Source: Thermodesulfobacterium commune DSM 2178 | GTDB taxonomy: Bacteria; Desulfobacterota; Thermodesulfobacteria; Thermodesulfobacteriales; Thermodesulfobacteriaceae | NCBI RefSeq assembly: GCF_000734015.1 | Contig: NZ_CP008796.1 | Span: forward strand, 330,001-362,000 | Direction: 5' to 3' | DNA length: 32,000 nt | Part shown: piece by piece, positions 5,967 through 29,665 of the stretch | Position numbering within the stretch: the first letter of the stretch is position 1 | Layout: each line of letters opens with the position of its first letter | Translations under genes and position numbers: made by a program | The notes under the pieces: generated by a model | Seen by the model: the letters and a program-made list of their open reading frames with translations, nothing else | Told to the model about the DNA's origin: nothing | Databases searched by the model: none

Positions 5967-6737
5967 ATGGAGCTTGAGATTCAGAGAGCTATTGTAAAGT
6001 ATGGAATGGAGGACCTTTACGAGTACAGTGAGGTAGACACACTAATAGTAGGAGCAGGGCCTTCAGGTCTTACTTGTGCTAAATATTTAGCTGAAAAGGG
6101 CTACAAGGTAGCGGTTTATGAAAAAAGGTTGTCTTTTGGTGGTGGGATTGGTGGTGGAGGTAACATGATACCTAAGATTGTGGTTCAGGAAGAAGTATTA
6201 CCTATAGTAGAAGATTTTAAAATAAAGTATCAAAAGGCAGATAAAGGATTATATGTAGTTGATCCTCCAGAACTTATAGCTAAACTGGCTACAGGAGCTT
6301 TAGATGCAGGCGCCAAATTTTTTCTTGGGGTTTATGTAGAAGATGTAATCGTTAGAGATAATCCACCTAAGGTTTGTGGGGTTTTATGGAAATGGACTGC
6401 TATAGAGATGGCAGGATTGCATGTAGACCCACTTTTTACTTCTTCAAAAGCTTTGGTTGACGCCTCTGGTCATGGGGCAGAAATAGTCCAGATCGCTGCT
6501 GAGAAAAATCCAGATTTAAACATTTTTATCAAAGGAGAAAGGTCAAACTGGAGCGAAGTCTCTGAAAGATTGGTGGTAGAACATACAGGTAAGGTGGCAG
6601 AGGGTCTATATGTTACAGGGATTGCTGTTTGTGAAATTTTTGGTTTACCAAGGATGGGACCGATTTTTGGCGGTATGCTTATGAGTGGTAAAAAAATTGC
6701 AGAGGTTATAGCAGCTGACCTCTCTAAAAAAACATAA
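5967..6737 (+). CDS. thi4: Thiazole synthase Thi4 family (archaeal/eukaryotic-type thiamine thiazole synthase)
   Basis: FAD/NAD-type dinucleotide fold VDTLIVGAGPSGLTCAKYLAEKGYKVAVYEK. Gly-rich FGGGIGGGGNM. VDASGHGAEIV loop. PRMGPIFGGMLMSGKK C-terminus. Strong GGGAGGAG SD. Confidence 0.8.
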   Translation: MELEIQRAIVKYGMEDLYEYSEVDTLIVGAGPSGLTCAKYLAEKGYKVAVYEKRLSFGGGIGGGGNMIPKIVVQEEVLPIVEDFKIKYQKADKGLYVVDPPELIAKLATGALDAGAKFFLGVYVEDVIVRDNPPKVCGVLWKWTAIEMAGLHVDPLFTSSKALVDASGHGAEIVQIAAEKNPDLNIFIKGERSNWSEVSERLVVEHTGKVAEGLYVTGIAVCEIFGLPRMGPIFGGMLMSGKKIAEVIAADLSKKT

Positions 6738-9802: not shown

Positions 9803-11581
9803 TTACTTTAGTATAAACCAATCTTCTACTTTACCAAGTCCACGGACTGAATTGCCCACATAAATTTCTGAAAAGTTTTTTAGGGTTTCAAGAGAGATTT
9901 CTTGTTCTAAGGCTATTTTCTTTTTAACCAAAAATTTTCTCAGAACTCCATCAAGAAGTTTTAATTTTAAAGGTGGAGTATAGAGTTTCCCCTCTTTTTT
10001 GACGAAAAAGTTAGAAAAAGATCCTTCGAGAATTTTACCGTTTTCATCAAAAAACACTACTTCATCGAATCCTAACTGTTTTACTTTTTGCAGGGCTTTT
10101 TCTAAGGGAGATCTTACGGTAGTTTTGTGATAGAAAAGATTAGATAAATCAAAATCTCGCTTCATAAAGGCTATTTTTAGTCCTTTTTTCCAACCCTCAT
10201 AAGGAAGAAGAGATATCTCTACCTTCCCTTCAGGATAAAGAAGGAGCCTTACTTTATATTTTTTTTGGTCAGGTATTTGAGTTTCGATGAAGCTTTGGAA
10301 ACTGGAAAAATTCTGTAAAACCTTGGGCAGGTTAAACCTGAAATATTTGGCAGAAAACATCAACCTTTGATAGTGGAGTTTTAGGAGAGGATTAAGGGTA
10401 TTAGGCTTAAACCAGAAGGTTTCTATCAGTTGAAAATAAGGCAAGGGATTTAAAAAGAATTTAGCTTTGAGCAAACACTCCTCATATTCTTCATCAGATT
10501 TGCTATCCCAAACCACTCCACTTCCAATACCTGCTTCTCCAAGATAACTTTCTAAATCTTTTTTAGTGAATACCAAGGTTCTTATCCCCACGTTAAATAG
10601 AAAATTATGGTTTGGGTCTATATACCCTATCGCTCCTGTGTAAACTCCTCTGGGTTCTTTTTCAACCTCAGCGATAATTTCCATCGCCCTTATCTTAGGT
10701 GCTCCGGTAACTGAACCGCAGGGGAAAAGCGCTTTGAAAATTTCAAACAAATTTTCGGTGAAAAGTTTTCCCTTTACAGAAGAGGTCATCTGATGAAGGG
10801 TAGGGTAGGTTTCTATGTTAAAAAGCTGGGTTACCCAAACCTCCCCTGGTACACAAACCCTTCCTAAATCATTTCTTAAAAGGTCTACTATCATTACGTT
10901 TTCTGCCCGATTTTTTTCATCCAAAAAAAGTTCTCTTTTTCTCTTTTGGTCTAAAACGAAAACCGGAGCTCTTTTAATCGTTCCTTTCATCGGAGAGGTT
11001 GATAAAAAATATCCCTCTTTTTTGAGAAAAAGTTCTGGAGATAAAGAGGCTATCGAGAAATTTTCTTCTTCTAAATAAAAACTGTACTTACAGCGCTGAG
11101 AAAAGAGGAGCTGAAAAAATAAGTCTGATGGATGTCCTTTTAAACAAAACTTGACCTTAAAAGTATAGTTAACCTGATAAACATCCCCAGAAGCTATATA
11201 GTCTTTTATTTTTTTTATGTCCTCCTGGTAGGTTTCTTTAGATATAGAAAAACTAAGATTTTCGATCGACAGAAAATTTTCTGTTTTAGCTAATTCAAGG
11301 GGATTAATAAAAAATTTTTGTGGAGGAGGGTAGATTCCAAAATAACCAAGTGGCAAGTTAGGTTTTTTGAAAAACTTGTTAAGTCTTTTTTCTAATAAGT
11401 ATCCTGTTTCATAACATAAGAAACCACAGGCATAAAAACCTTTTTTTATAAAATTTTGGAGGTTTTCGAAAAAAAGAGATAGAGCAGAGGGATCATCTAA
11501 TTTAATGACTTCTATAGGGTTTTCAAAAGATAAAACCTGATAGGGAATTTTATCTGCTTTAACCCAAATAAATCTCATCAT
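9803..11581 (-). CDS. pabBC: Bifunctional aminodeoxychorismate synthase component I (PabB) / aminodeoxychorismate lyase (PabC, class IV aminotransferase fold) fusion
   Basis: Chorismate-binding domain motifs SPELFL, PMKGTIKR, ENVMIVDLLRNDLGRV, GSVTGAPKIRAMEII, RGVYTGAIGY and AGIGSGVVWDS. The C-terminal ~200 aa start at FQLIETFWF and contain YHKTTVRSP, a class IV PLP-Lys context. The ATGA overlaps the upstream gene. Confidence 0.85.
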   Translation of the reverse strand: MMRFIWVKADKIPYQVLSFENPIEVIKLDDPSALSLFFENLQNFIKKGFYACGFLCYETGYLLEKRLNKFFKKPNLPLGYFGIYPPPQKFFINPLELAKTENFLSIENLSFSISKETYQEDIKKIKDYIASGDVYQVNYTFKVKFCLKGHPSDLFFQLLFSQRCKYSFYLEEENFSIASLSPELFLKKEGYFLSTSPMKGTIKRAPVFVLDQKRKRELFLDEKNRAENVMIVDLLRNDLGRVCVPGEVWVTQLFNIETYPTLHQMTSSVKGKLFTENLFEIFKALFPCGSVTGAPKIRAMEIIAEVEKEPRGVYTGAIGYIDPNHNFLFNVGIRTLVFTKKDLESYLGEAGIGSGVVWDSKSDEEYEECLLKAKFFLNPLPYFQLIETFWFKPNTLNPLLKLHYQRLMFSAKYFRFNLPKVLQNFSSFQSFIETQIPDQKKYKVRLLLYPEGKVEISLLPYEGWKKGLKIAFMKRDFDLSNLFYHKTTVRSPLEKALQKVKQLGFDEVVFFDENGKILEGSFSNFFVKKEGKLYTPPLKLKLLDGVLRKFLVKKKIALEQEISLETLKNFSEIYVGNSVRGLGKVEDWFILK

Positions 11582-13461
11582 TCAGGATTTTTGGTATAGG
11601 CAAGGATCAAACAGAGCAATAATAGAACTACAGAGATTATTAAAAACATGGGAATAGAAAGAAGGCTTTCTAAAAGAGAACTTTCAAGAAGATAACCGAT
11701 CACATAGAAGGTTACCAAAAGGGTTTCTAACAATAAAAAATTTCTTAAAAAGTCTGTCAGCCTTCTTCTAAACACCCATTTTTTCTTAAGGTCAACTTTA
11801 AGGTCTTTTAATAGTTGAACCTTTTCTTCTGCTAAGTTTAGTTCTGAAAACATCAATGGTAAAATTTGTGAGATATCCCTTTTTTTGGTTTTTTCTAAGT
11901 TTTTTTCGATTAAATCCTTTAGGGATTTTAATTCTTTTCCAAAAATCATATCCTCTTCTTTATAAGGATACTTTACCCAAAAGTTCGCAAGAACTTCGTA
12001 TTGTTTTTTTAACTCAGTTATTTTATGGTCTATTTCTTTTACTTTGTTATAAACCAAAGCCTGTAATTCAAGGGTAAGGTCAAGTGCTCGGTCTGAGGCT
12101 TTATCTATTGCTCCCATACCTCTGTGATAAATGTCATAAGCTAAGGTTTTAAGTAATTCTTCGTATTCTATGATTTCATCCTTGCTCATAACGTGTTTTA
12201 ACCGATGAAACAGGTCTTCAGCTTCTTTAAGCCTCTGTAAGGCATTTTCTCTTTTCTCAAGGATTCGTTTTTCTATAAAATTTTCTAACTCTTCCTGATC
12301 TCTAATAAACAGAGGTTCGGTAAAAGCCCAGAAAATAAGAAGGGGATGCCCAAAATAACCCATAAACTTTTCAATAGGTTCATCATTTAAATAATCTAAA
12401 ACCCTTAATCTGAAGAAAACAGGTAAAAAGGTTTTATCTAACTCAAAAGCCCTTTGATATAGGTCTTTGGCTGTTAGGTCATTTCCTTGATATTCGTAGA
12501 TATATCCTTTTAAAAAAATTAGATAACTTTTGATAAAATTAGAGGTATTTTGACTTAGAGCGGTTTCAAGAAAGTATAGAGCCCTATCCCATCTATTTTT
12601 TAACAGGTTTACAAAAGTCAACCCTATACAGGCCTTTAAATCACTTTCTTCTTCAAGAAATCGACTTTCAGCAACGTTTAAATCCCCTTTTATGAGAGCA
12701 TCCAAACCTATCCCGATGTTTCCACCTCTTACAGGGGTTTCTATCGAAATTTTTAACTGAGACCAGGAAGTTAACCCTTCTCCTCGGTAAAAAACTATCT
12801 TTAAGAATTCAGGTAAAAGATAAAAGTGCCTTATATGAAAATAATTTGGTTTTTCCTCTATCAAGCCCTGCCAGATGATTTGAGCAATCTCTGAAAAAGG
12901 AAGGTCTAAGGCTTGTTCTAACACCGATCTTGGTTGAGGTTCTAAAAGACCAGGACATTTGTGGTAAGGATGATGGGTGCTTTCACAGAAAAAACATGTT
13001 GGATTTGGTCCGGTAAAAAAGAAGTCTTTATAAAAAAAACTAATTTTAGGGTCAACAGTAGCAGGCAGCATTAGCTCCTTCCAGTTGTCTAACCAGTCCT
13101 GGACCTTATAAAAAAGGTTTACTCCTTCAAACTCCTGTAAAACCTCTCTTTTTAGGTTTTCTTGAAAATAGACTTTTCCTGCCCTTACATATCGAGGCTT
13201 TTCTGAAAAGTCCCTTTCTTTTGAGAGGATTACATAAAACGGTAAAGGGGAAGAACCTAAAAATTTTTTAAATCGCTCTTTCAGGTTGTAAAGGATCTCG
13301 TTGAGATAAACCAGGTTTTTAGGGGGAACTTGGTAAAGGTTAGAAGATATCTCTTTGTATGTCTTTTTTAAAAACTCTTCTACGTGATAATCTACCTCTT
13401 GAGAAGAGGTTTTAAACAAAAAATGTTTTAATTTGGGGATTTCAACGACCTTAAGAAACAT
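11578..13461 (-). CDS. Hypothetical membrane-anchored protein with a CCHC zinc knuckle, TPR-like helical region, coiled coil and C-terminal TM helices
   Basis: The 627-aa ORF is translationally coupled on both sides (11-nt overlap with lspA, 4-nt with pabBC). CFFCESTHHPYHKC matches CX2CX4HX4C (residues 156-169). Helical repeat region at roughly 270-350. Heptad-rich region at roughly 400-560. Hydrophobic C-terminus FLLLETLLVTFYVIGYLL ... IPMFLIISVVLLLLCLILAY. Confidence 0.6.
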   Translation of the reverse strand: MFLKVVEIPKLKHFLFKTSSQEVDYHVEEFLKKTYKEISSNLYQVPPKNLVYLNEILYNLKERFKKFLGSSPLPFYVILSKERDFSEKPRYVRAGKVYFQENLKREVLQEFEGVNLFYKVQDWLDNWKELMLPATVDPKISFFYKDFFFTGPNPTCFFCESTHHPYHKCPGLLEPQPRSVLEQALDLPFSEIAQIIWQGLIEEKPNYFHIRHFYLLPEFLKIVFYRGEGLTSWSQLKISIETPVRGGNIGIGLDALIKGDLNVAESRFLEEESDLKACIGLTFVNLLKNRWDRALYFLETALSQNTSNFIKSYLIFLKGYIYEYQGNDLTAKDLYQRAFELDKTFLPVFFRLRVLDYLNDEPIEKFMGYFGHPLLIFWAFTEPLFIRDQEELENFIEKRILEKRENALQRLKEAEDLFHRLKHVMSKDEIIEYEELLKTLAYDIYHRGMGAIDKASDRALDLTLELQALVYNKVKEIDHKITELKKQYEVLANFWVKYPYKEEDMIFGKELKSLKDLIEKNLEKTKKRDISQILPLMFSELNLAEEKVQLLKDLKVDLKKKWVFRRRLTDFLRNFLLLETLLVTFYVIGYLLESSLLESLLSIPMFLIISVVLLLLCLILAYTKNPE

Positions 13462-16937: not shown

Positions 16938-18806
16938 ATGATTTTTCTTGATAGCTTTGATGTGGTAGTCATAGGAGCAGGACATGCAGGAATAGAGGCT
17001 TGTTTAGCCTCTGCAAGAATGGGGTGTAAAACTCTTCTTCTTACCATCAATCTTGAAAGAATAGGGGCTATGAGTTGTAATCCTTCTATAGGGGGCATAG
17101 GTAAAGGTCACTTGGTAAAAGAGATAGACGCTCTTGGTGGGGAGATGGCTTTAGCTATAGACGAGACAGGTATTCAGTTTAGAAAACTTAACACCAAGAA
17201 AGGACCTGCGGTAAGGGCTACCAGAGCTCAGGCCGATAGGTTTAGATATCAAGAGAGGATGAAAAAAAGGTTAGAAAGGGTACCTAACCTTTTTATCAAA
17301 CAGGGATTGGTTACTCAAATTTTGGTAAAAGATAAAAGGGTAATAGGGGTTAGGACTAAAGCAGGAGAAGAGTTTGGGGCTAAAGCTGTGGTAATAGCCC
17401 CAGGAACTTTTTTTCATGGACTTATACATATAGGGCTTGAAAGTTTTCCAGCAGGAAGGCTTGGAGACCCCCCTTCTAACAAACTGGCAGAAAATCTCAA
17501 AGAACTGGGTTTTGAGCTTGGCAGGTTTAAAACCGGAACTTGTCCCAGGCTTGATGCTCGTACTATAGATTATACTAAAATGGAAATCCAATGGGGAGAT
17601 TTCCCCCCACCTCTTTTCTCTTTTAAAAACGTAGGAAAACGACCTCCTCTTCCTCAAGTACCATGTTTTATAACCTATACCACAGAGGAGACCCATAAGA
17701 TTATCAAAGGTGCTTTAGATAGGTCTCCCCTTTTTACAGGAAAAATTAAAGGGAGAGGGGTTAGGTATTGTCCTTCGATAGAAGATAAAGTCTTCCGTTT
17801 CCCAGACAAAGAGAGACATCAAGTTTTTATCGAACCTGAAGGTCTTGATACCGTTGAGGTTTATCCTAACGGGATAAGCACCAGCCTTCCTATAGACGTT
17901 CAATGGAAGATGGTAAGAAGTATTCCTGGTTTGGAAAAGGCTGAGATATTAAGGCCAGGCTATGGTATAGAACACGATTTTGTGTTTCCAACTCAACTTA
18001 AACCCTCTTTAGAAACCAAACTCATCTCAGGATTGTTTTTAGCTGGCCAAATTAACGGAACCACAGGTTATGAAGAAGCTGCAGCTCAAGGACTTATAGC
18101 AGGTATAAATGCAGCTCTTTACGTAAAGGAAGAAGAACCTTTTATTCTGGACCGCTCAGAAGCTTATATCGGAGTCTTGATAGATGATTTAGTAACCAAA
18201 GGGGTAGATGAACCTTATCGAATGTTTACTTCAAGGGCAGAATATAGGTTATTACTAAGGGAAGATAACGCTGACCTTAGGCTTACGGAAAAGGCAAAAA
18301 AGTTAGGTTTAATCGATGAAGAAAGGTGGTTGAGATACCTCGATAAAAAGGAAAAAATAAAAACTTTACAAACACTTCTTCAAGAGATTAGGATCTCTCC
18401 TGATTTAATAAACGGTTACCTTCAAAGTAAAGGAATAACTCCTATCAAACAAACTACCAAGGCTTACGACCTTTTAAGAAGACCAGAAATAGAGGTAGAG
18501 GACCTTGTAGAATTCCTCCCAGAATTAAAAAGGTTTGACCAAGAAGTTCTCTTAGAGGTGGAAACAGAGATAAAATATAGTGGATATATAGAAAGACAAC
18601 TCAAAGAGGTAGAAAAATTTAAACGCCTTGAAAACATAAAACTACCAGAAGACTTAAACTATTACGAAATCCCAGGCCTTACCAACGAGGTTCGTGAAAA
18701 GTTTAGTAAGATAAGGCCTACTTCTTTGGGTCAGGCCCTAAGAATTCCAGGAGCTACCCCTGCAGCTATTTCAGCGATACAAGTATATCTAAAGAAAAAG
18801 TGTTAG
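16938..18806 (+). CDS. mnmG: tRNA uridine 5-carboxymethylaminomethyl modification enzyme MnmG (GidA)
   Basis: [18 protein letters not shown] fold, [60 protein letters not shown], and C-terminal GATPAAISA. 622 aa. Confidence 0.97.
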
Positions 18807-19881: not shown

Positions 19882-20637
19882 CTATTCTAATTCTTCTCTT
19901 AACCTTGCCTTTTTTTTCTGATATTTTTTCCAGGGTTTTTCTTTCTTCTTTCCACGAGTAAGCTTTCTAAAAGGCAAGTCTTGGTCAGATTGGTAAATGT
20001 GTTCTGTAAAACCAGATTGATTAAAAGGGAGGATAGGGGCAGGTCTTTCAGCAGGTTTTTCTTGAGGTAAGTATTTACGTATGAACTTTTGATCAATAGG
20101 AGGTCCTTTTAAGAAGGTATAGTGAAGGTAAGAGAGTAACAAAACCTTTTCTCCAAACTGGTAAATTTCAAGGTCTTCAAAAAATTTATAAGGTAAAACC
20201 TCTATCAACAGTGCACCCTTAGCTTTAGCCCAATTTTCTGCCAATTCTTTTTCAGTAAACACAGGAAAAAGCCCTTCCCTGGGGCTCCATTTTTCATCTA
20301 AACACAACTTATACCACAACCTTGGCTTGACAAATGTCCAAAGTTTTTTAAAATTATAAACTTGGGTTAAACTTATCTTAAAAGGGGGGGTGAATTTTTT
20401 CTCTTTAGGCTTTACTAAGTTTAAAGGTTCTGAAAATTCAAAAAAATCTCTATAATAATAAGAAAATAGTTGCTTTAATATGTTTAAGTTTAGTTTTTTA
20501 AATTTTTTAGTAAAATTTAGAGCTTGAAAAATTTCTTTTATTTTGAAAAATTCATTATTATCAGGAATAAGACCAAACTCATCGGGATGATAGCTGAGCA
20601 TGTAGATTAAAGTTTTTAATAAAAGTGGATCATGCAT
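19882..20637 (-). CDS. Hypothetical protein, distant Tpt1/KptA (RNA 2'-phosphotransferase)-like fold with a Pro-rich then Lys-rich C-terminal tail
   Basis: The N-terminus LKTLIYMLSYHPDEFGLIPDNNEFFKIKEIFQAL resembles the Tpt1/KptA winged-helix N-domain. ALLIEVLPYKFFEDLEIYQFGEKVLLLSYLHYTFL resembles the KptA C-terminal strand pattern. The tail is RGKKKEKPWKKYQKKKARLREELE. This assignment relies on recalled homologue sequences, not a search. Confidence 0.4.
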   Translation of the reverse strand: MHDPLLLKTLIYMLSYHPDEFGLIPDNNEFFKIKEIFQALNFTKKFKKLNLNILKQLFSYYYRDFFEFSEPLNLVKPKEKKFTPPFKISLTQVYNFKKLWTFVKPRLWYKLCLDEKWSPREGLFPVFTEKELAENWAKAKGALLIEVLPYKFFEDLEIYQFGEKVLLLSYLHYTFLKGPPIDQKFIRKYLPQEKPAERPAPILPFNQSGFTEHIYQSDQDLPFRKLTRGKKKEKPWKKYQKKKARLREELE

Positions 20638-23590: not shown

Positions 23591-24607
23591 TTATAACTTG
23601 TCTACAATAATCCCACCTCCTAATAAGAACTCCTTTTCATAGAAGGCACAAACCTGACCAGGGGTTACCCCAAAAACAACCTCTTCAAAAAGAACTTTTG
23701 TTTTCTTGCCTTCAGTGATTATATCTTTAACCTTCACCCTAGGGGCACGGTATCTTATCTGAGCTTCAGGAGAGGTCCATTTCTCTATCGGAAGGTGTAA
23801 GTTTAGACTCTCAAGTACAAGACCTTTGACTGCAAGGTCTTTTTTTTCTCCTAAAAAAATGGTATTAGTTTGTGGGTCTAAACAGGTTATATAAAGAGGT
23901 TTGCCTAACGGAAGCCTTAAGCCCTTTCTCTGCCCTATGGTATAGAAAAATATCCCTTCATGGGTTCCAACTACTTTCTCTTTATAAACCACAGGCCCCT
24001 TTTTAGGTTGTAAAAACATAGATAAAAACTCTTTAACTGAAGTTCTCTTTAAGAAACATACGTCCTGAGATTCTTGCGAGGTTTCTATCCCAAAAATTTC
24101 TTTAGCCATAATTTTAACTTCTTCTTTTAAATAACCACTTAGAGGAAAGTTTAGAAAAGGTAAGACTTGTTTGTTAATCAAGGACAGGAAGTAAGATTGA
24201 TCCTTTTTAGTATCCTTTGGTTTTTTTAACAAGAGCTCACCTTGGTATTCCCCTAAATCTACGTAATGTCCGGTAGCTAACTTTTCAGCTCCTAAATTTT
24301 TTAACGTCCAGTCAAGGACTTCCCCAAATTTTATTTTTGCGTTACATAGAGCGCATGGATTAGGAGTTTTCCCTTGGGCATAAGTGTTTATAAAATAAGA
24401 GATGATTTGTTCTTGAAATTTTTGGGTAAGGTCTATGATGTGATGGGGTATGTCAAGTGTTTGGGCTATAAACTTAGCTTTTTCTATTTCCTTTTGTTTT
24501 TCAAAAAGCTTAAACGTAATTCCAACTAAAGAAACTCCTTGTTTTTTTAAAAGATAGGCAGAAACAGCACTATCAATTCCTCCGCTTAGACAAATGGCGA
24601 TTTTCAT
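23591..24607 (-). CDS. mnmA: tRNA-specific 2-thiouridylase MnmA
   Basis: PP-loop IAICLSGGIDSAVSA. TPNPCALCNAKIKF, LATGHY, DQSYFL and QDVCFL (second catalytic Cys). 338 aa. Confidence 0.93.
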   Translation of the reverse strand: MKIAICLSGGIDSAVSAYLLKKQGVSLVGITFKLFEKQKEIEKAKFIAQTLDIPHHIIDLTQKFQEQIISYFINTYAQGKTPNPCALCNAKIKFGEVLDWTLKNLGAEKLATGHYVDLGEYQGELLLKKPKDTKKDQSYFLSLINKQVLPFLNFPLSGYLKEEVKIMAKEIFGIETSQESQDVCFLKRTSVKEFLSMFLQPKKGPVVYKEKVVGTHEGIFFYTIGQRKGLRLPLGKPLYITCLDPQTNTIFLGEKKDLAVKGLVLESLNLHLPIEKWTSPEAQIRYRAPRVKVKDIITEGKKTKVLFEEVVFGVTPGQVCAFYEKEFLLGGGIIVDKL

Positions 24608-24675
24608 GTTTTATGGTAAAATAAAGTTTACCAAAGTAATTAAATTTTTTAAATTATAAACAAAAGGAGTGGAAT

Positions 24676-26418
24676 ATGGAAGGCCTTTTAAAAAAATTTT
24701 TTCAACCTTCTAAAAAAGTAATAGCGGACAAAGCGGCTTTTCCTGAAGAGACGGTATCGAGGGTAGAAAACAGGCTTAAAAGCCTGGGGGTTAAGGTTTA
24801 TAAAGGGGTTCAGAGGATAGATAAGGGAAGACTTGGAATTCCTGTTTATATAAGTCTTTATGATATAGATGGACAAAGGATTACCGGAAATTTTAAACAG
24901 ATGGGTAAAGGTTCTACTGAGGTTTTAGCTAAAGCGAGTGCACTTATGGAGTTGGTAGAAAGGTTTTCCCTGTTTTCTTTTTATAGATCGGTAGAAACGG
25001 TAGGAAGATTAACAACTTTCGAAGAGTTAGGAGAAGATGCCCTCTCTTGGGAAATATTTTTGAGGTCTATAGAAGATGACGAACAAGATAAGGTTAAAGA
25101 AATAGCCTATCGTTATATAAAAAAGACTCCTATGTGGTTTGTTCCTGGATTAGAGGTTACTACTAAAAAAGTTAAATATCTACCTTTTCATTGGTTTTGG
25201 ATACTTTATGAATATAATGGATCTGCTGGAGGAAATACCTATCCTGAGGCAGCCATTCAGGCTATCTGTGAGTTGATAGAAAGACATGTGAACGCTCTTT
25301 CGGTGAGAAAGGGTATACCAATGGCTGAAATAAAAAGAAGTTCAATTTCAGGGGAAGGAGAAAGGCTTCTTTCTTGTTATGAGAGATTGGGGATTAAAGT
25401 GTGGATAAGAGATATGACCTTTGGAATGCCTGCTCCAACAATAGCGGTGATGGCGATGGATCCCTCTACCTATCCTCACAGAAGTGAAATCGTTTATGCT
25501 GCTGGTACAGGCACCTCACCAGAAAGGGCTTTAATAAGGGCCTTGACAGAAGTAGCTCAGCTGGCAGGAGATTTTGATACCGAGGGTAAATATTTAGAAA
25601 GTGGACTTCCCAAATTTCGTACCTTAGAAGAAGCTTCTCAGGTATTAGCTACCAACGGAGAGGTTAGTTTGGAGGATCTTCCTAATCTTTATTCCGAAGA
25701 TCATACGCAAGAACTTGAGGTGTTAACCGATAAACTAAAAGAGATAGGTTATCAAACCTATTTGATAGATATCACTCGCCCAGATTTAGAAATTCCTGCG
25801 GTTTATGCGGTGATTCCAGGAATACTTTTTAGAGAAAGAACTAAGATTTCTTATCTTTATCAGTTTGTAAGAACTTTAAGTCTTTATTTTCCTCTTGAGT
25901 CTCAGAAATCAATCTTAGAAGATTTGATAAAGGAGGTACCAGACAGATATTTTCTTTGGGCTTTTCTGGGTAATGTGTATAAAGAACTAAAAGAGTTTAG
26001 CAAAGCGATTTCAGCCTATCAAAAGGCACTTGGAATGATCGATTTTGACGACGACAAAATAGCCCTTTATACACATTTAGCCGATGCTTATTTAAAGGAT
26101 GAACAGTATAAAGAAGCGGTGGAAACTGCTTTACGAGGTCTTTCTTTAGAAGAGGTACCTGAGCTTTACAACATCTTAGGAAGGGCTTATTATAAATTAG
26201 AAGAATATTTTTTAGCGATGGAGGCCTTCTGTAAAGCTATAGATTTAAATCCTGCTTCAGCCATAGACTATGCTAATGTAGGTTATTGTTTAAAGGCGTT
26301 AAACCAGCTACCTACTGCAGAGGTTTTTTTCTTAAAAGCCTTAGAGCTTAATCCTGATTTGACGGTTGCTAAAATGGGATTAGAATATTGTGGAAAGTTT
26401 TTAAACAACCAAAACTAA
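24676..26418 (+). CDS. ycaO: YcaO-domain ATP-dependent amide-activating enzyme with a C-terminal TPR domain (E. coli-type, non-azoline architecture)
   Basis: YcaO motifs GKGSTEVLAKASALMELVERF, NGSAGGNTYPEAAIQAICELIERH and GTGTSPERALIRALTEVAQ. About four TPR-like 34-aa repeats run from residue ~425 (YKELKEFSKAISAYQKAL ... FFLKALELNPD). AAGGAG SD. Confidence 0.88.
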   Translation: MEGLLKKFFQPSKKVIADKAAFPEETVSRVENRLKSLGVKVYKGVQRIDKGRLGIPVYISLYDIDGQRITGNFKQMGKGSTEVLAKASALMELVERFSLFSFYRSVETVGRLTTFEELGEDALSWEIFLRSIEDDEQDKVKEIAYRYIKKTPMWFVPGLEVTTKKVKYLPFHWFWILYEYNGSAGGNTYPEAAIQAICELIERHVNALSVRKGIPMAEIKRSSISGEGERLLSCYERLGIKVWIRDMTFGMPAPTIAVMAMDPSTYPHRSEIVYAAGTGTSPERALIRALTEVAQLAGDFDTEGKYLESGLPKFRTLEEASQVLATNGEVSLEDLPNLYSEDHTQELEVLTDKLKEIGYQTYLIDITRPDLEIPAVYAVIPGILFRERTKISYLYQFVRTLSLYFPLESQKSILEDLIKEVPDRYFLWAFLGNVYKELKEFSKAISAYQKALGMIDFDDDKIALYTHLADAYLKDEQYKEAVETALRGLSLEEVPELYNILGRAYYKLEEYFLAMEAFCKAIDLNPASAIDYANVGYCLKALNQLPTAEVFFLKALELNPDLTVAKMGLEYCGKFLNNQN

Positions 26419-26434
26419 TCCTTGGAGGGTAAAG

Positions 26435-26869
26435 GTGGTCTACAAAAAGGGTTTATATCTTAAGTTTAACCCAGAGATAGTAGACCAGCCTATAGTATAT
26501 AGGCTGGTAAAGGATTATGATTTAGTTTTTAACATTCTTAGGGCGGTAATCACTCCTGGTAAAGAAGGTATCATGATCTTAGAGTTAGAAGGCACCCCTG
26601 AAAAACTAAGAGAAGGATTAAACTATCTTAGAGAGGTAGGGGTTGAAGTCAAGTCTTTAGAACAACAGATCATCAAAAATGAGGAAAAATGTATTCATTG
26701 TGGAAACTGTACTGCTGCATGTCCAACAGGGGCTCTTTATGTAGAAAAAGATACCTTTTATATAAGGTTTAACCCTGAAAAATGCACTGCTTGTGAGTTT
26801 TGTGTGGCAGTTTGTATCACCAAAGCTATGGAGGTTCACGTAGAAAGTGAGGTAGAAAGTTTTACCTAA
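26435..26869 (+). CDS. NIL-domain protein fused to a 2x[4Fe-4S] ferredoxin domain
   Basis: GTG start with a GGAGGG SD, 16 nt after the ycaO stop. The N-domain is DQPIVYRLVKDYDLVFNILRAVITPGKEGIMILELEG, a MetN C-terminal-type NIL domain that includes the literal NIL tripeptide. It is followed by CIHCGNCTAACP and CTACEFCVAVC cluster motifs. Confidence 0.85.
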   Translation: MVYKKGLYLKFNPEIVDQPIVYRLVKDYDLVFNILRAVITPGKEGIMILELEGTPEKLREGLNYLREVGVEVKSLEQQIIKNEEKCIHCGNCTAACPTGALYVEKDTFYIRFNPEKCTACEFCVAVCITKAMEVHVESEVESFT

Positions 26870-26878
26870 AGAGGTCTA

Positions 26879-26907
26879 TTGACTTTTAAATAAAATTTTA
26901 ACATAAT
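26879..26907 (+). promoter_or_regulatory. Near-consensus sigma-70 promoter for pilT (TTGACT - 17 nt - CATAAT)
   Basis: TTGACT at 26879-26884, a 17-nt AT-rich spacer, and CATAAT at 26902-26907. Only 9 nt separate the -10 from the pilT ATG (26917), and there is no SD in between. Confidence 0.6.
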
Positions 26908-26916
26908 TATTAGACA

Positions 26917-28008
26917 ATGGCGAAGTTAGACGCTTTTTTTAAATTGATGGTTGACACCCAAGCTTCTGACCTGCATCTTTCTGCAGGTAATCCTCCCCTT
27001 CTTAGGATCCACGGCGACCTTCAAAGGGTTAAATATAAAGTTTTAGAAGATGAAGAACTTAGAGAAATGCTCTATGAAATAGCTCCTGAAGAAATCATCA
27101 AAAAGTTTGAAGAACAAGGGGAAGTAGACTGGGGTTATGAAATTCCTGGTTTAGCTCGTTTTAGGGTGAACTATTATCGTCAAAGAAGAGGGGTTGCTGC
27201 AGCCTTTAGGCTTATTCCTAACAAGATAAAAACTGTAGAAGAATTAGGTCTTCCTCCTATCCTTAATCGGTTAGCTCTTTTACCAAGAGGTTTAGTTTTG
27301 GTTACTGGTCCTACAGGGTCAGGTAAATCTACAACCTTAGCTGCTATTATAGACTATGCCAACAGAATGCGTTATGACCATATTATTACCATAGAAGACC
27401 CTATCGAGTTTGTGCATGAACCTAAGAATTGCTTAATAAACCAAAGAGAGGTGGGTACCCATACTAAAAGTTTTGCTAATGCCCTTAGGGCTGCTCTGAG
27501 AGAAGACCCTGATATTATCATGATAGGTGAAATGAGAGATTTAGAAACCATTTCTTTAGCTCTTGAAGCAGCTTTAACCGGACATTTAGTATTTGCTACC
27601 CTTCATACCATCAGCGCAGCTCAAACTGTGAGTAGAATTGTGGATGCTTTTCCTCCGGAGGAAAGAGACCAGATAAGGGTTTCTTTATCAGAGGCTTTAA
27701 GAGCAGTTATTTCTCAAACGATGTTTAAAAGGATAGACAGACCTGGTAGAATTGTGGCTATGGAAATCATGATAGCTACTCCTGCTATCAGAAATCTGAT
27801 AAGAGAAAATAAGATCCATCAAATACCTTCGATGATTCAGATGGGTAGAAAATATGGGATGATGTCTCTTGATGATTGTATTATGGAATATCTTAACAAC
27901 AAGTGGATAAGCCCTGAAGAAGCCTTTATTAAGGCAGTTGATAAAAGTAGGTTTATTCCTTTTGTCCAAAATAAAGAAATTTTAGACTTCACCGAAATGC
28001 CGGGTTAG
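26917..28008 (+). CDS. pilT: Type IV pilus retraction ATPase PilT
   Basis: ASDLHLSAGNPPLLRIHGDL N-terminus. Walker A GPTGSGKSTT. Asp/His boxes. PilT-specific AIRNLIRENK motif. 363 aa. Confidence 0.92.
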   Translation: MAKLDAFFKLMVDTQASDLHLSAGNPPLLRIHGDLQRVKYKVLEDEELREMLYEIAPEEIIKKFEEQGEVDWGYEIPGLARFRVNYYRQRRGVAAAFRLIPNKIKTVEELGLPPILNRLALLPRGLVLVTGPTGSGKSTTLAAIIDYANRMRYDHIITIEDPIEFVHEPKNCLINQREVGTHTKSFANALRAALREDPDIIMIGEMRDLETISLALEAALTGHLVFATLHTISAAQTVSRIVDAFPPEERDQIRVSLSEALRAVISQTMFKRIDRPGRIVAMEIMIATPAIRNLIRENKIHQIPSMIQMGRKYGMMSLDDCIMEYLNNKWISPEEAFIKAVDKSRFIPFVQNKEILDFTEMPG

Positions 28009-28015
28009 TAAATCC

Positions 28016-29179
28016 ATGCTAACAGATTTTGATATAAAAGCGCTATTTTCTAAGTTGGCTAATATAGAACCAGGTATTTCTGATATTTTCATCCTTTCAG
28101 GTTATCCTTTTCAGGTTATGGTTTATGGAAAGATGAAAAATGTATATTTAGAAGATTTTTATGTAGAAAAATTAACCCCTCACCAAACCGAGACCATTGC
28201 TTTTAACCTTTTAAAAGAAAATCCTAGACTTTTTTTTAAACTTTTTAAAGATGGATATGCAGACCTTTCTTATTTTTTAGATGACGAAACTCGTTTTAGG
28301 GTAAACATCTTTTCTCGTCAAAAAACCTATAATATTATTATGAGAAAACTTGAGAGTAGGGTTAAAGGTATAGATGAGCTAGGTCTCCCTGAGGTTTTTT
28401 ATAAAATAGCTAAAGAAAAATTTGGGATTGTGCTAGTTACTGGAGCTACAGGTCAGGGGAAAACCACTACCTTAGCTGCTATCCTTCATGAAATAAATAA
28501 GACTCAACCGGTTCATATTTTAACCTTAGAAGACCCTGTAGAATATATCCATCAACCAATTAAAGCTACCATTAATCAGAGAGAATTAGGTACAGATTTT
28601 AGCTCCTATGCAGAGGGACTTAGGGCTGCCCTAAGAGAAGCTCCTCAGGTGATTTTAGTAGGAGAAATAAGAGATAGAGAAACAATGGATATTGCCCTTA
28701 TGGCAGCTGAAACAGGACATTTAGTTTTTTCTACTTTGCATACGATAGGAGCTTCTCAAACGATAAACAGGGTGATTGGTTTTTACCCTCCCGATGAAGA
28801 AAACTTTATAAGACAAAGATTAGCAGCCTCGTTAAAATGGGTTATAGGACAAAAACTCCTTCCCAAGATAGGAGGAGGAAGGATTCCCGTGTTTGATATT
28901 CTTTACAATAACTTAAGGGCAAAGGAAATTATTCTCACAGGAGAATCGGAAGGTAAAACTCTTTATGATGTTATGACCCAAGGTAAGCCTTTTGGAATGC
29001 AAACTTTTGATCAACACCTTATAGAACTTTATGAAAAAAATCTTATAGAAGAAGATTTAGCCATTTATCATGCATTAAGAAAAGATATTGTAGGAAGACA
29101 GATAGACCTTATTAAGAAAAAAAGAAGGGTTGAGGAGGAAACATTTCACTTAGAACTTGGAGGTAAAGGAGTAAAATAA
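28016..29179 (+). CDS. pilU: PilT-family hexameric ATPase paralogue (PilU-like; lacks the AIRNLIRE motif)
   Basis: Walker A GATGQGKTTT, LTLEDPVEYIH, GEIRDRETMDIAL and GHLVFSTLHT. The position equivalent to AIRNLIRE reads NLRAKEIILTGE. Confidence 0.8.
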   Translation: MLTDFDIKALFSKLANIEPGISDIFILSGYPFQVMVYGKMKNVYLEDFYVEKLTPHQTETIAFNLLKENPRLFFKLFKDGYADLSYFLDDETRFRVNIFSRQKTYNIIMRKLESRVKGIDELGLPEVFYKIAKEKFGIVLVTGATGQGKTTTLAAILHEINKTQPVHILTLEDPVEYIHQPIKATINQRELGTDFSSYAEGLRAALREAPQVILVGEIRDRETMDIALMAAETGHLVFSTLHTIGASQTINRVIGFYPPDEENFIRQRLAASLKWVIGQKLLPKIGGGRIPVFDILYNNLRAKEIILTGESEGKTLYDVMTQGKPFGMQTFDQHLIELYEKNLIEEDLAIYHALRKDIVGRQIDLIKKKRRVEEETFHLELGGKGVK

Positions 29180-29188
29180 GGGGTATTT

Positions 29189-29665
29189 ATGAGGGTTGAT
29201 GTTTCAGATTTATTTTTACAAAAATTAGTCGTCGGTTTTTTTTGGAAACTTTCCGATTCTTTCAGTCCTATAGCAGAGTGGTTTGAAGTTAATAAAGATT
29301 ATGTTGTAAGAGAAATTAAAGATAAGGAAGACTTAATATTTTTGATTAAAAACAGACTTTTAAAGGTATTAGTGATAGGGGTTAATTCTTTAGAAGAAGC
29401 TTATGAGATCAAACAATTTTTAGATTTTAAAATCTCTGTTGAACTAAGAAGAGAGCTTGAGGTGATATATGTAAGTCCTCAGGTACAAACTTTAGACCCA
29501 AAAACTACTTTTTTATGGAGTGCTAATTTAGTTTTAAACCCTCAGCATTTATCAGAATTTTCAACCATTTATACCAAGGGTCTTTCCTATTGGGAAGATC
29601 TTTATAAACATTTTAAGAAAACTCAAAAATATTTTTTTGAAAAAAGTCTTGAGGGAGGGGTATGA
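29189..29665 (+). CDS. Hypothetical 158-aa protein with no recognisable motif
   Basis: The ORF has an AAGGGG SD 9 nt after the pilU-like stop, and its stop overlaps the galU start (ATGATG). Codon usage is consistent with its neighbours. No TM segment or signal peptide is evident. Confidence 0.55.
   Translation: MRVDVSDLFLQKLVVGFFWKLSDSFSPIAEWFEVNKDYVVREIKDKEDLIFLIKNRLLKVLVIGVNSLEEAYEIKQFLDFKISVELRRELEVIYVSPQVQTLDPKTTFLWSANLVLNPQHLSEFSTIYTKGLSYWEDLYKHFKKTQKYFFEKSLEGGV

Follow-up and report, generated by a model that had tools for sequence, protein, structure and literature searches.

A conserved pairing of a YcaO-TPR protein with a NIL-domain ferredoxin in the Thermodesulfobacteriales, a candidate TfuA-independent sulfur-insertion locus

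From where would a YcaO enzyme encoded without TfuA draw the sulfur that it inserts? The question is raised by a locus of Thermodesulfobacterium commune DSM 2178, a sulfate-reducing thermophile, lying in a stretch of 32,000 nucleotides of contig NZ_CP008796.1 (positions 330,001 to 362,000; hereafter the window, in whose coordinates positions are given). In this locus a gene encoding a 580-aa YcaO protein with a C-terminal tetratricopeptide repeat (TPR) domain (ycaO-TPR) is followed on the same strand by a gene encoding a 144-aa ferredoxin with an N-terminal NIL domain (nilFd, product NIL-Fd). A preliminary description, made from the DNA sequence, had put forward NIL-Fd as a sulfur- and electron-delivering partner of YcaO-TPR. 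Here we report that the YcaO-TPR/NIL-Fd pairing is real, conserved and previously undescribed, and we assign a probability of roughly 40% to the reading that the two genes form a co-transcribed pair within a conserved Thermodesulfobacteriales sulfur-insertion cluster of ycaO-TPR, nilFd and mnmA, in which NIL-Fd would serve YcaO-TPR. The elements of the pair are the following.

24676..26418 (+): ycaO-TPR gene, 580 aa (open reading frame; Pfam PF02624 and TPR families; AlphaFold2 model)
24901..25824 (+): YcaO catalytic domain, aa 76-383, including the ATP/Mg motif (Pfam envelope; residues invariant in 53 homologues)
25852..26400 (+): TPR domain, aa ~393-575 (Pfam TPR_1/2/8/12 matches at aa 414-570; DSSP helices; matches to consensus-TPR structures in the PDB)
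26424..26429 (+): Shine-Dalgarno sequence GGAGGG, 5 nt 5' of the GTG start of nilFd (sequence reading)
26435..26869 (+): NIL-ferredoxin gene, 144 aa (Pfam PF09383 and Fer4 families; cysteine positions)

An NCBI entry for T. commune matches the 580-aa protein with 100% identity, and the domain composition of the protein is as first described, with a full set of YcaO ATP/Mg motifs and about four TPRs. The YcaO profile PF02624 matches aa 76-383 (E-value 6.7e-62; 210 bits against a cutoff of 25.7) over profile positions 1-324 of 325, and Pfam TPR families match aa ~414-570, where four canonical TPRs are detected. The published YcaO ATP-binding motif, Sx6-7Ex3Qx3ExxER (PMC7774982), is intact as S183-x7-E191-x3-Q195-x3-E199-xx-E202-R203, and in 53 family members no substitution occurs at E92, E95, R96, E199, E202, R203, H204, R284, R288 or E292. 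The AlphaFold2 model is of high confidence (predicted local distance difference test 92.7, predicted template-modelling score 0.89), with 13 helices assigned by DSSP over aa 393-575, and every top Foldseek match to it is a YcaO structure, with E-values down to 7e-18. The protein is acidic, with an isoelectric point (pI) of 5.2 for the whole chain and 4.6 for its TPR domain. Database searches returned 2844 homologues at E<=1e-10, among which full-length YcaO-TPR proteins form ~20 clusters at the 50% identity level.

Comparison with characterized YcaO classes places YcaO-TPR in a distinct subfamily, since the curated NCBIfam models all score far under their cutoffs: TIGR03266, for McrA-glycine thioamidation (methanogenesis marker 1), reaches 120 bits against 365; TIGR03604, for the azoline-forming cyclodehydratases of thiazole/oxazole-modified microcins (TOMM) and cyanobactins, 104 bits against 219; and NF040716, for the E. 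coli-type uL16/S12 enzymes, 57 bits against 700, matching aa 160-295 only. Among solved structures, the best phmmer match is Methanocaldococcus jannaschii MJ1094 (E-value 1.3e-25 over aa 17-392), followed at lower ranks by TruD and LynD (~1e-17 and 1e-15), the M. kandleri YcaO (1e-9) and, over part of its length, E. coli YcaO (4q84, 1e-6). The Foldseek ranking agrees, with MJ1094 (6peu) matched at an E-value of 7e-18 and a target-normalized TM-score of 0.77. E. coli YcaO is the sole structure aligned over the full length including the TPR part, in a Foldseek alignment of 605 columns with a TM-score of 0.49 and a root-mean-square deviation (rmsd) of ~13 A.

The start codon of the second gene (GTG, 26435) lies 16 nt beyond the TAA stop of ycaO-TPR (26416-26418), and this operon-like spacing suggests that the two genes are co-transcribed. 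Both the spacing and the separate GGAGGG Shine-Dalgarno sequence bear out the first reading of the locus, as does the architecture of the product: NIL-Fd joins a NIL domain (PF09383, aa 9-73, E-value 4e-17) to a di-[4Fe-4S] ferredoxin domain (aa 80-135), in which the motifs CxxCxxCxxxC at C86/89/92/96 and C117/120/123/127 account for 8/8 cysteines as cluster ligands. We retrieved 1339 NIL-Fd homologues, and a tblastn search with NIL-Fd against plasmids returned glycyl-radical activases only. A link between NIL-ferredoxins, COG1900 proteins and homocysteine biosynthesis, also mentioned in the preliminary description, is borne out by the literature: a NIL/ferredoxin protein is required together with DUF39/COG1900 and COG2122 proteins for homocysteine synthesis in Desulfovibrio and Methanosarcina, where electrons are proposed to come from the ferredoxin and the NIL domain may act as a methionine sensor (PMC5764234, PMC12068725). 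The Desulfovibrio protein, DvMF_0262, is needed for this synthesis and its partner DUF39 gene is unlinked (PMC5764234). No DUF39 gene was found in the window or in the 165 loci examined.

A scan of one genome per species identified 206 loci encoding relatives of YcaO-TPR, of which the best 80 were taken for neighbourhood analysis. The Thermodesulfobacteriales loci in this set encode YcaO proteins 49-95% identical to the window protein. A tblastn analysis of these loci located NIL-Fd directly 3' of ycaO-TPR in 42 of the 47 with enough downstream sequence, extending the pairing well beyond the genus. In the 36 pairs for which both genes were called as open reading frames, the stop-to-start distance ranges from -38 to +22 nt, and 22 distinct combinations of flanking genes surround the pair; YcaO identity within the order falls to 45%. 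Adjacency maintained through such frequent local rearrangement marks the pairing as an order-wide feature rather than a genus-level accident. There are five exceptions. Two Caldimicrobium metagenome-assembled genomes (MAGs; L010 and L019) have an insertion of two genes behind ycaO-TPR, one encoding a methylenetetrahydrofolate reductase (MTHFR)-like protein and one an RNA methyltransferase, with nilFd 4 kb on in L019; in two others (L021 and L027) nilFd was not found nearby; and in Thermosulfurimonas dismutans S95 (L026) nilFd sits on another contig, adjoined by an insertion sequence (IS) transposase gene. The insertions in the Caldimicrobium MAGs (L010:7869-10752 and L019:1969-4846) consist of a 532-aa MTHFR-like protein (PF02219 and DUF5981) and a TRAM/U5-methyltransferase, placed between ycaO-TPR and nilFd.

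In the literature searched, we found no paper joining YcaO with the NIL domain, YcaO with DsrC, TusE or MnmA, or NIL with MnmA, in keeping with the initial statement that the YcaO/NIL-Fd pairing had not been described; a ferredoxin partner for an Fe-S MnmA likewise seems undescribed.

The surroundings of the pair in the window are listed below.

23591..24607 (-): mnmA, tRNA 2-thiouridine(34) synthase, C-type (NCBIfam NF001138; Cys85/88/184)
24608..24675 (no strand): intergenic region between the divergent mnmA and ycaO-TPR, 68 bp (sequence; an SD-like AAGGAG is the only evident signal)
26879..26907 (+): promoter-like TTGACT-17-CATAAT in the 47-bp gap before pilT (consensus scan, 10/12 matches; a consensus match only)
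26917..28008 (+): pilT, 47 bp 3' of nilFd

The flanking gaps of 68 and 47 bp and the divergent orientation of mnmA are thus as originally noted. A sigma-70 consensus scan gave no strong match in the 68-bp gap, which presumably holds a promoter shared by mnmA and ycaO-TPR. Scanning the whole window for promoters and terminators gave counts no better than in shuffled sequence, the pilT-proximal site alone being noteworthy; that site would make ycaO-TPR and nilFd a bicistronic unit apart from pilT. Among the Pfam-scanned open reading frames of the window there was no TfuA, E1-like/Ocin-ThiF protein, dehydrogenase, precursor peptide or COG1900/DUF39 protein, which for the first four upholds the initial survey of the neighbourhood. 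Nor was a TfuA, ThiS-like carrier, E1-like partner or precursor peptide seen among the conserved neighbours in the 80 related loci. The claim of TfuA-independence is strengthened by these negatives and by the TfuA-independence of the nearest characterized relative. A reading of the locus as a biosynthetic cluster for a ribosomally synthesized and post-translationally modified peptide (RiPP) was ruled out, there being no precursor open reading frame, no partner and no tailoring gene, and only tiny intergenic gaps.

The third gene of the proposed cluster is itself tied to iron-sulfur chemistry. The window MnmA scores 335 bits with NF001138 (cutoff 284) and carries the CxxC...C signature as C85, C88 and C184, which assigns it to the C-type ([4Fe-4S]) class; in this class CxxC...C replaces DxxC...C, and the enzyme is [4Fe-4S]-dependent and uses cluster-bound sulfide (PMC7025502). 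Divergent from ycaO-TPR in Thermodesulfobacterium and Caldimicrobium, mnmA follows ycaO-TPR and nilFd on one strand in Thermodesulfatator, Thermosulfurimonas and related MAGs. Over the 36 called pairs, it is divergent in 13 loci, out of the neighbourhood in 13 and downstream in 10.

Outside the Thermodesulfobacteriales the same YcaO-TPR family keeps other company. None of 31 more distant loci from Desulfobacterota MAGs (39-43% identical to the window protein) encodes NIL-Fd, and TfuA, an E1-like partner, a dehydrogenase and a precursor are absent from the two neighbours on either side of ycaO-TPR in these loci. A recurrent block here comprises a gene for elongation factor EF-G (TIGR00484, 910 bits), a DUF5335/DUF2934 protein, YcaO-TPR and a 106-aa DsrC. 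The DsrC protein is ~75% identical to Desulfovibrio vulgaris DsrC (2v4j chain C, E-value 1e-52), and its canonical C-terminal arm (...GACKMAGLPKPTGCV) is identical in 17 loci; this identity and the canonical arm rule out a TusE-type paralogue for the 106-aa, same-strand genes. Its gene lies 31-369 nt 3' of ycaO-TPR on the same strand in 18 loci (17 called as open reading frames, and L072 by tblastn). Four further loci (L049, L051, L055 and L068) have, on the opposite strand and at a distance of ~2.6 kb, a gene for a 105-aa DsrC-family protein whose C-terminal arm is divergent, so that a DsrC-family gene occurs within 3 kb of ycaO-TPR in 22 of 27 informative Desulfobacterota loci (18 + 4). Pairwise YcaO identity in the DsrC-linked group spans 40-96% (median 56%), a diversity that matches that of the Thermodesulfobacteriales. 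Two representatives show further arrangements. The P0241 locus has the order DUF2934, YcaO, DsrC, a 527-aa open reading frame and a methylthiotransferase, and the P0244 locus (L172:3896-7746) has DsrE and DsrE2-family genes and an unannotated 276-aa open reading frame just 5' of ycaO-TPR. This change of neighbour among NIL-Fd, DsrC and DsrE around one YcaO family fits sulfur insertion with an interchangeable sulfur supply.

Several other features of these loci were observed. The block at L056:2974-8216, with ~20 similar loci (L057-L080, L167), places the EF-G gene outside the str operon, and its DUF5335/DUF2934 protein has 163 aa; an FG-GAP repeat protein of ~550 aa is encoded after dsrC, and ATP-grasp (RimK-like) and Zn-ribbon genes often occupy the opposite strand. 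In L049 (L049:7966-10329), and also in L051, L055 and L068, a 787-aa protein in which a B12-binding radical SAM enzyme is fused to an FKBP-type prolyl isomerase, with a helical C-terminus, is encoded between YcaO-TPR and the convergent 105-aa DsrC-family gene, and L068 adds a second, convergent ycaO copy.

What would the pair do? Judged by the sulfur-related neighbours, the kinship to a thioamidating YcaO, the architecture resembling that of E. coli YcaO and the absence of RiPP features, the chemistry of YcaO-TPR is most likely an ATP-dependent thioamidation whose target is a full-length protein, a reading that we hold at slightly better than even odds. YcaO-TPR would in this case be a stand-alone, protein-directed YcaO: with ATP/Mg bound, it would O-phosphorylate an amide in the backbone of a full-length protein docked on, or close to, the C-terminal TPR domain; the phosphate would then give way to a sulfide equivalent, leaving a thioamide, with neither TfuA nor ThiS taking part. 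NIL-Fd could be a low-potential, two-cluster electron carrier shared by C-type MnmA, the COG1900 homocysteine enzyme and YcaO-TPR, most plausibly giving two electrons that release sulfide, at the enzyme, from zero-valent sulfur or from a persulfide or trisulfide, and in the Desulfobacterota relatives an equivalent supply might come from DsrC. The electron-donor role of NIL-Fd and the choice of a protein as substrate are both inferred. A direct YcaO/NIL-Fd partnership, with physical or functional coupling of the two proteins, is plausible, and we would place it somewhat short of even odds. As to the substrate, the EF-G and DsrC neighbours in the Desulfobacterota and the tRNA- and ribosome-modification neighbours in the window may serve as leads only.

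Several observations weigh against this reading of the pair. Thioamidation with free sulfide needs no electrons, and since T. commune makes sulfide in bulk, there is no evident need for a ferredoxin partner. Apart from the eight ligands NIL-Fd contains no cysteine, which makes it an electron carrier and unlikely to carry persulfide or sulfur; of the initially proposed role as sulfur and electron partner, the delivery of electrons thus stays possible and the carriage of sulfur is not supported. The links to mnmA and homocysteine synthesis show, moreover, that NIL-Fd is not specific to YcaO. Cyanobactin heterocyclases nearly equal thioamidating YcaOs in Foldseek score, so the chemistry cannot be read from similarity alone. 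The YcaO-TPR genes of representatives P0243, P0245, P0246 and the Desulfovibrio-like P0254 have no sulfur-related neighbour. Further, a metagenome scan seeded with divergent NIL-Fd sequences yielded loci (L144, L151, L158, L160 and L162) in which nilFd is immediately followed by mnmA with no YcaO nearby. The two genes overlap by 4 nt in L162 (L162:3669-5182), where mnmA scores 375 bits with its equivalog model (cutoff 284), and the gene next after mnmA encodes the methylthiotransferase MtaB in L158 and L160. The mnmA genes coupled translationally to nilFd in these YcaO-less lineages are of the C-type. In T. dismutans S95 as well (L026, L165:1163-2601), nilFd and mnmA overlap by 4 nt while ycaO-TPR lies on the other contig; a PF00872 transposase gene stands directly 5' of nilFd-mnmA at the contig end, so that this IS-mediated split keeps nilFd with mnmA. 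By the tree of NIL-Fd described below, the linkage of nilFd to mnmA is probably the older one, which ycaO-TPR joined in the Thermodesulfobacteriales. This older, tighter coupling and the orthologue acting in homocysteine synthesis indicate that NIL-Fd is not dedicated to YcaO.

In the strongest competing explanation, NIL-Fd partners MnmA and/or L-ASST, the COG1900 L-aspartate-semialdehyde sulfurtransferase, and not YcaO. Under this explanation, which we consider rather unlikely, ycaO-TPR would have been inserted 5' of an older nilFd-mnmA operon in an ancestor of the Thermodesulfobacteriales and be co-transcribed with it as sulfur and translation housekeeping, YcaO-TPR taking free sulfide as the M. 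jannaschii enzyme does. The overlap of nilFd with mnmA in T. dismutans, where an IS element parts ycaO from both, speaks for it, as do the same overlap in the YcaO-less metagenomic loci L151, L158, L160 and L162, the Fe-S-dependent type of the window mnmA, and the requirement for DvMF_0262 and an unlinked DUF39 gene in homocysteine synthesis. A neighbour-joining tree of NIL-Fd points the same way: contexts group by clade (YcaO and MnmA; YcaO only; MnmA only; PurL/MFS in a Desulfobacca-like clade), so that NIL-Fd is a single orthologous lineage with clade-wise change of neighbours, and the outgroup clade has the mnmA-only context. Running counter to this explanation, mnmA has moved to the other strand or away from the neighbourhood in Thermodesulfobacterium and Caldimicrobium, where nilFd still lies within ~20 nt of ycaO-TPR in each flank context, and the replacement of NIL-Fd by DsrC or DsrE beside the same YcaO family suggests that it is YcaO which needs a partner for sulfur or electrons.

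Might YcaO-TPR make no thioamides at all? It could instead activate oxyanions (molybdate or sulfate analogues), as proposed for the D. vulgaris protein DVU2210, or form amidines or azolines or cleave peptides, its sulfur-related neighbours then reflecting regulation or shared physiology. Loss of DVU2210 or its S195R substitution in the ATP motif confers molybdate resistance in a sat-deletion background (PMC7774982), the azoline-forming LynD and TruD and the YcaO peptidase MusD come close to thioamidating YcaOs in Foldseek score, and the thioamidating, TOMM and S12/uL16 models all fall far under their cutoffs. We nevertheless regard this alternative as very unlikely: no cyclodehydratase partner, dehydrogenase or precursor peptide occurs in ~80 loci, heterologous DVU2210 did not sensitize E. 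coli to molybdate (PMC7774982), the best match in both sequence and structure is a thioamide-forming enzyme, and the recurrent neighbours are sulfur carriers. Comparably improbable is that the adjacency is an inherited gene order, devoid of functional meaning and kept by a compact lineage with small genomes. The restriction of the pairs to a single order would suit such an explanation, as would the unrelated neighbours in several other YcaO-TPR subclades, but it sits poorly with the 22 flank contexts around an unchanged pair, a spacing that varies from overlap to 22 nt, a YcaO identity that drops to 45% inside the order, and the five exceptions, which show that the region rearranges while the pair is usually retained.

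To our knowledge, backbone thioamides in proteins are known in two cases only, McrA and uL16. A broader reading, drawn from the analysis as a whole and in our view quite unlikely, is that enzymes of the YcaO-TPR family thioamidate the backbone of a core protein in sulfate-reducing bacteria, with NIL-Fd, DsrC and DsrE as interchangeable physiological suppliers of sulfur or electrons and NIL-Fd as a general ferredoxin for reductive sulfide delivery. The target would then belong to the translation apparatus (cf. uL16) or to the dissimilatory sulfite-reduction machinery (e.g. DsrC or a partner of it), and NIL-Fd would serve three mechanistically different, ATP-linked O-to-S exchange enzymes, namely the COG1900 L-ASST, C-type MnmA and YcaO. 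If true, this would answer how YcaO enzymes lacking TfuA obtain sulfur. The locus in any case supplies conserved candidate partners (NIL-Fd, DsrC and DsrE) for the sulfur supply of a TfuA-less YcaO family; it suggests that NIL-ferredoxins may act in anaerobic sulfur insertion beyond homocysteine synthesis, including a coupling to Fe-S-type MnmA that is undescribed; and it connects the family to DVU2210, a genetically tractable gene with an unexplained molybdate phenotype.

Elsewhere in the window, genes for sulfur metabolism and tRNA modification are abundant (313-1242, 5967-6737, 16938-18806 and 23591-24607), encoding a ThiI-like PP-loop protein with an NFACT-R_2 RNA-binding domain, a Thi4-family thiazole synthase, MnmG and MnmA. 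On the 3' side, two tandem genes for PilT/PilU-family ATPases (26917-29179) follow the pair, and the promoter-like site suggests that they are transcribed separately from it. Three open reading frames lack Pfam matches, at 11578-13461 (-; 627 aa), 19882-20637 (-; 251 aa) and 29189-29665 (+; 158 aa); the last, between the second pilT-family gene and galU, is kept in many Thermodesulfobacteriales loci. An Rfam scan of the window matched no RNA family.

Set beside known systems, the locus is closest to MJ1094 (PDB 6pe3/6peu), the McrA glycine-thioamidating YcaO of M. jannaschii, a methanogen without TfuA. MJ1094 is the best match to YcaO-TPR in sequence and fold among solved structures, and like the window gene it has no TfuA gene nearby; it is ATP-dependent, acts on a full-length protein, and works in a sulfide-rich, anaerobic and thermophilic setting, as would the T. 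commune enzyme. The two proteins share ~24% identity, the window protein differing in an additional 190-aa TPR domain and in its NIL-ferredoxin operon partner, and since T. commune is a bacterium without methyl-coenzyme M reductase its substrate must differ from that of MJ1094.

In architecture the nearer counterpart is E. coli YcaO (PDB 4q84-4q86), which likewise consists of a YcaO domain and a C-terminal TPR-like domain of ~150 residues in a protein of similar length (586 vs 580 aa), is acidic, though more markedly so (pI 4.4 vs 5.2), and has no TfuA or precursor peptide gene nearby. Its substrate, called unsettled in the preliminary description, has since been identified: the enzyme introduces a thioamide into ribosomal protein uL16, at Met82. 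It dimerizes through its C-terminal TPR domain, which may also bind the substrate; TfuA is absent from E. coli, the physiological source of the sulfur is stated to be an open question, and the uL16-type group is predicted in Pseudomonadota only (PMC13063428). Identity to the window protein is 15-17%, and the TM-score of ~0.49 with an rmsd of ~13 A indicates a different domain arrangement; the gene for uL16 does not lie in the window.

DVU2210 of D. vulgaris, a YcaO-like TPR protein, belongs to the same full-length YcaO-TPR family (~580 aa, from sulfate reducers), and its genetics tie it to sulfur metabolism: futile activation of molybdate was proposed as the cause of the molybdate phenotype (PMC7774982), and the gene is among those mutated as sulfate respiration erodes during syntrophic evolution (PMC8319347). 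Representatives whose ATP motif is most like that of DVU2210, and through which DVU2210 itself was compared, are 35-39% identical to the window protein. Unlike the window, the Desulfovibrio-like representative P0254 has CbiG and GGDEF genes as neighbours, with no NIL-Fd, DsrC or mnmA.

For NIL-Fd the counterpart is the NIL/ferredoxin subunit of L-ASST (MA1822 in Methanosarcina acetivorans, DvMF_0262 in D. vulgaris Miyazaki), which has the same architecture of a NIL domain and two [4Fe-4S] motifs in ~140 aa and which genetics shows to be needed for a reductive insertion of sulfur that does not depend on ATP. The COG1900/DUF39 partner of that subunit is encoded adjacently in methanogens and unlinked in Desulfovibrio; the window NIL-Fd, unlike the subunit, does not stand beside COG1900/DUF39 but is operonic with YcaO-TPR and linked to mnmA. 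With the TfuA-YcaO systems of methanogen McrA and the thioviridamide-type RiPPs, finally, the locus would share the proposed ATP-dependent O-to-S exchange in the peptide backbone with the aid of a sulfur-supply helper, the candidate helpers here being a ferredoxin, DsrC or DsrE in place of TfuA. By its predicted function, the locus is thus a variant of the known YcaO thioamidation systems and no new kind of system.

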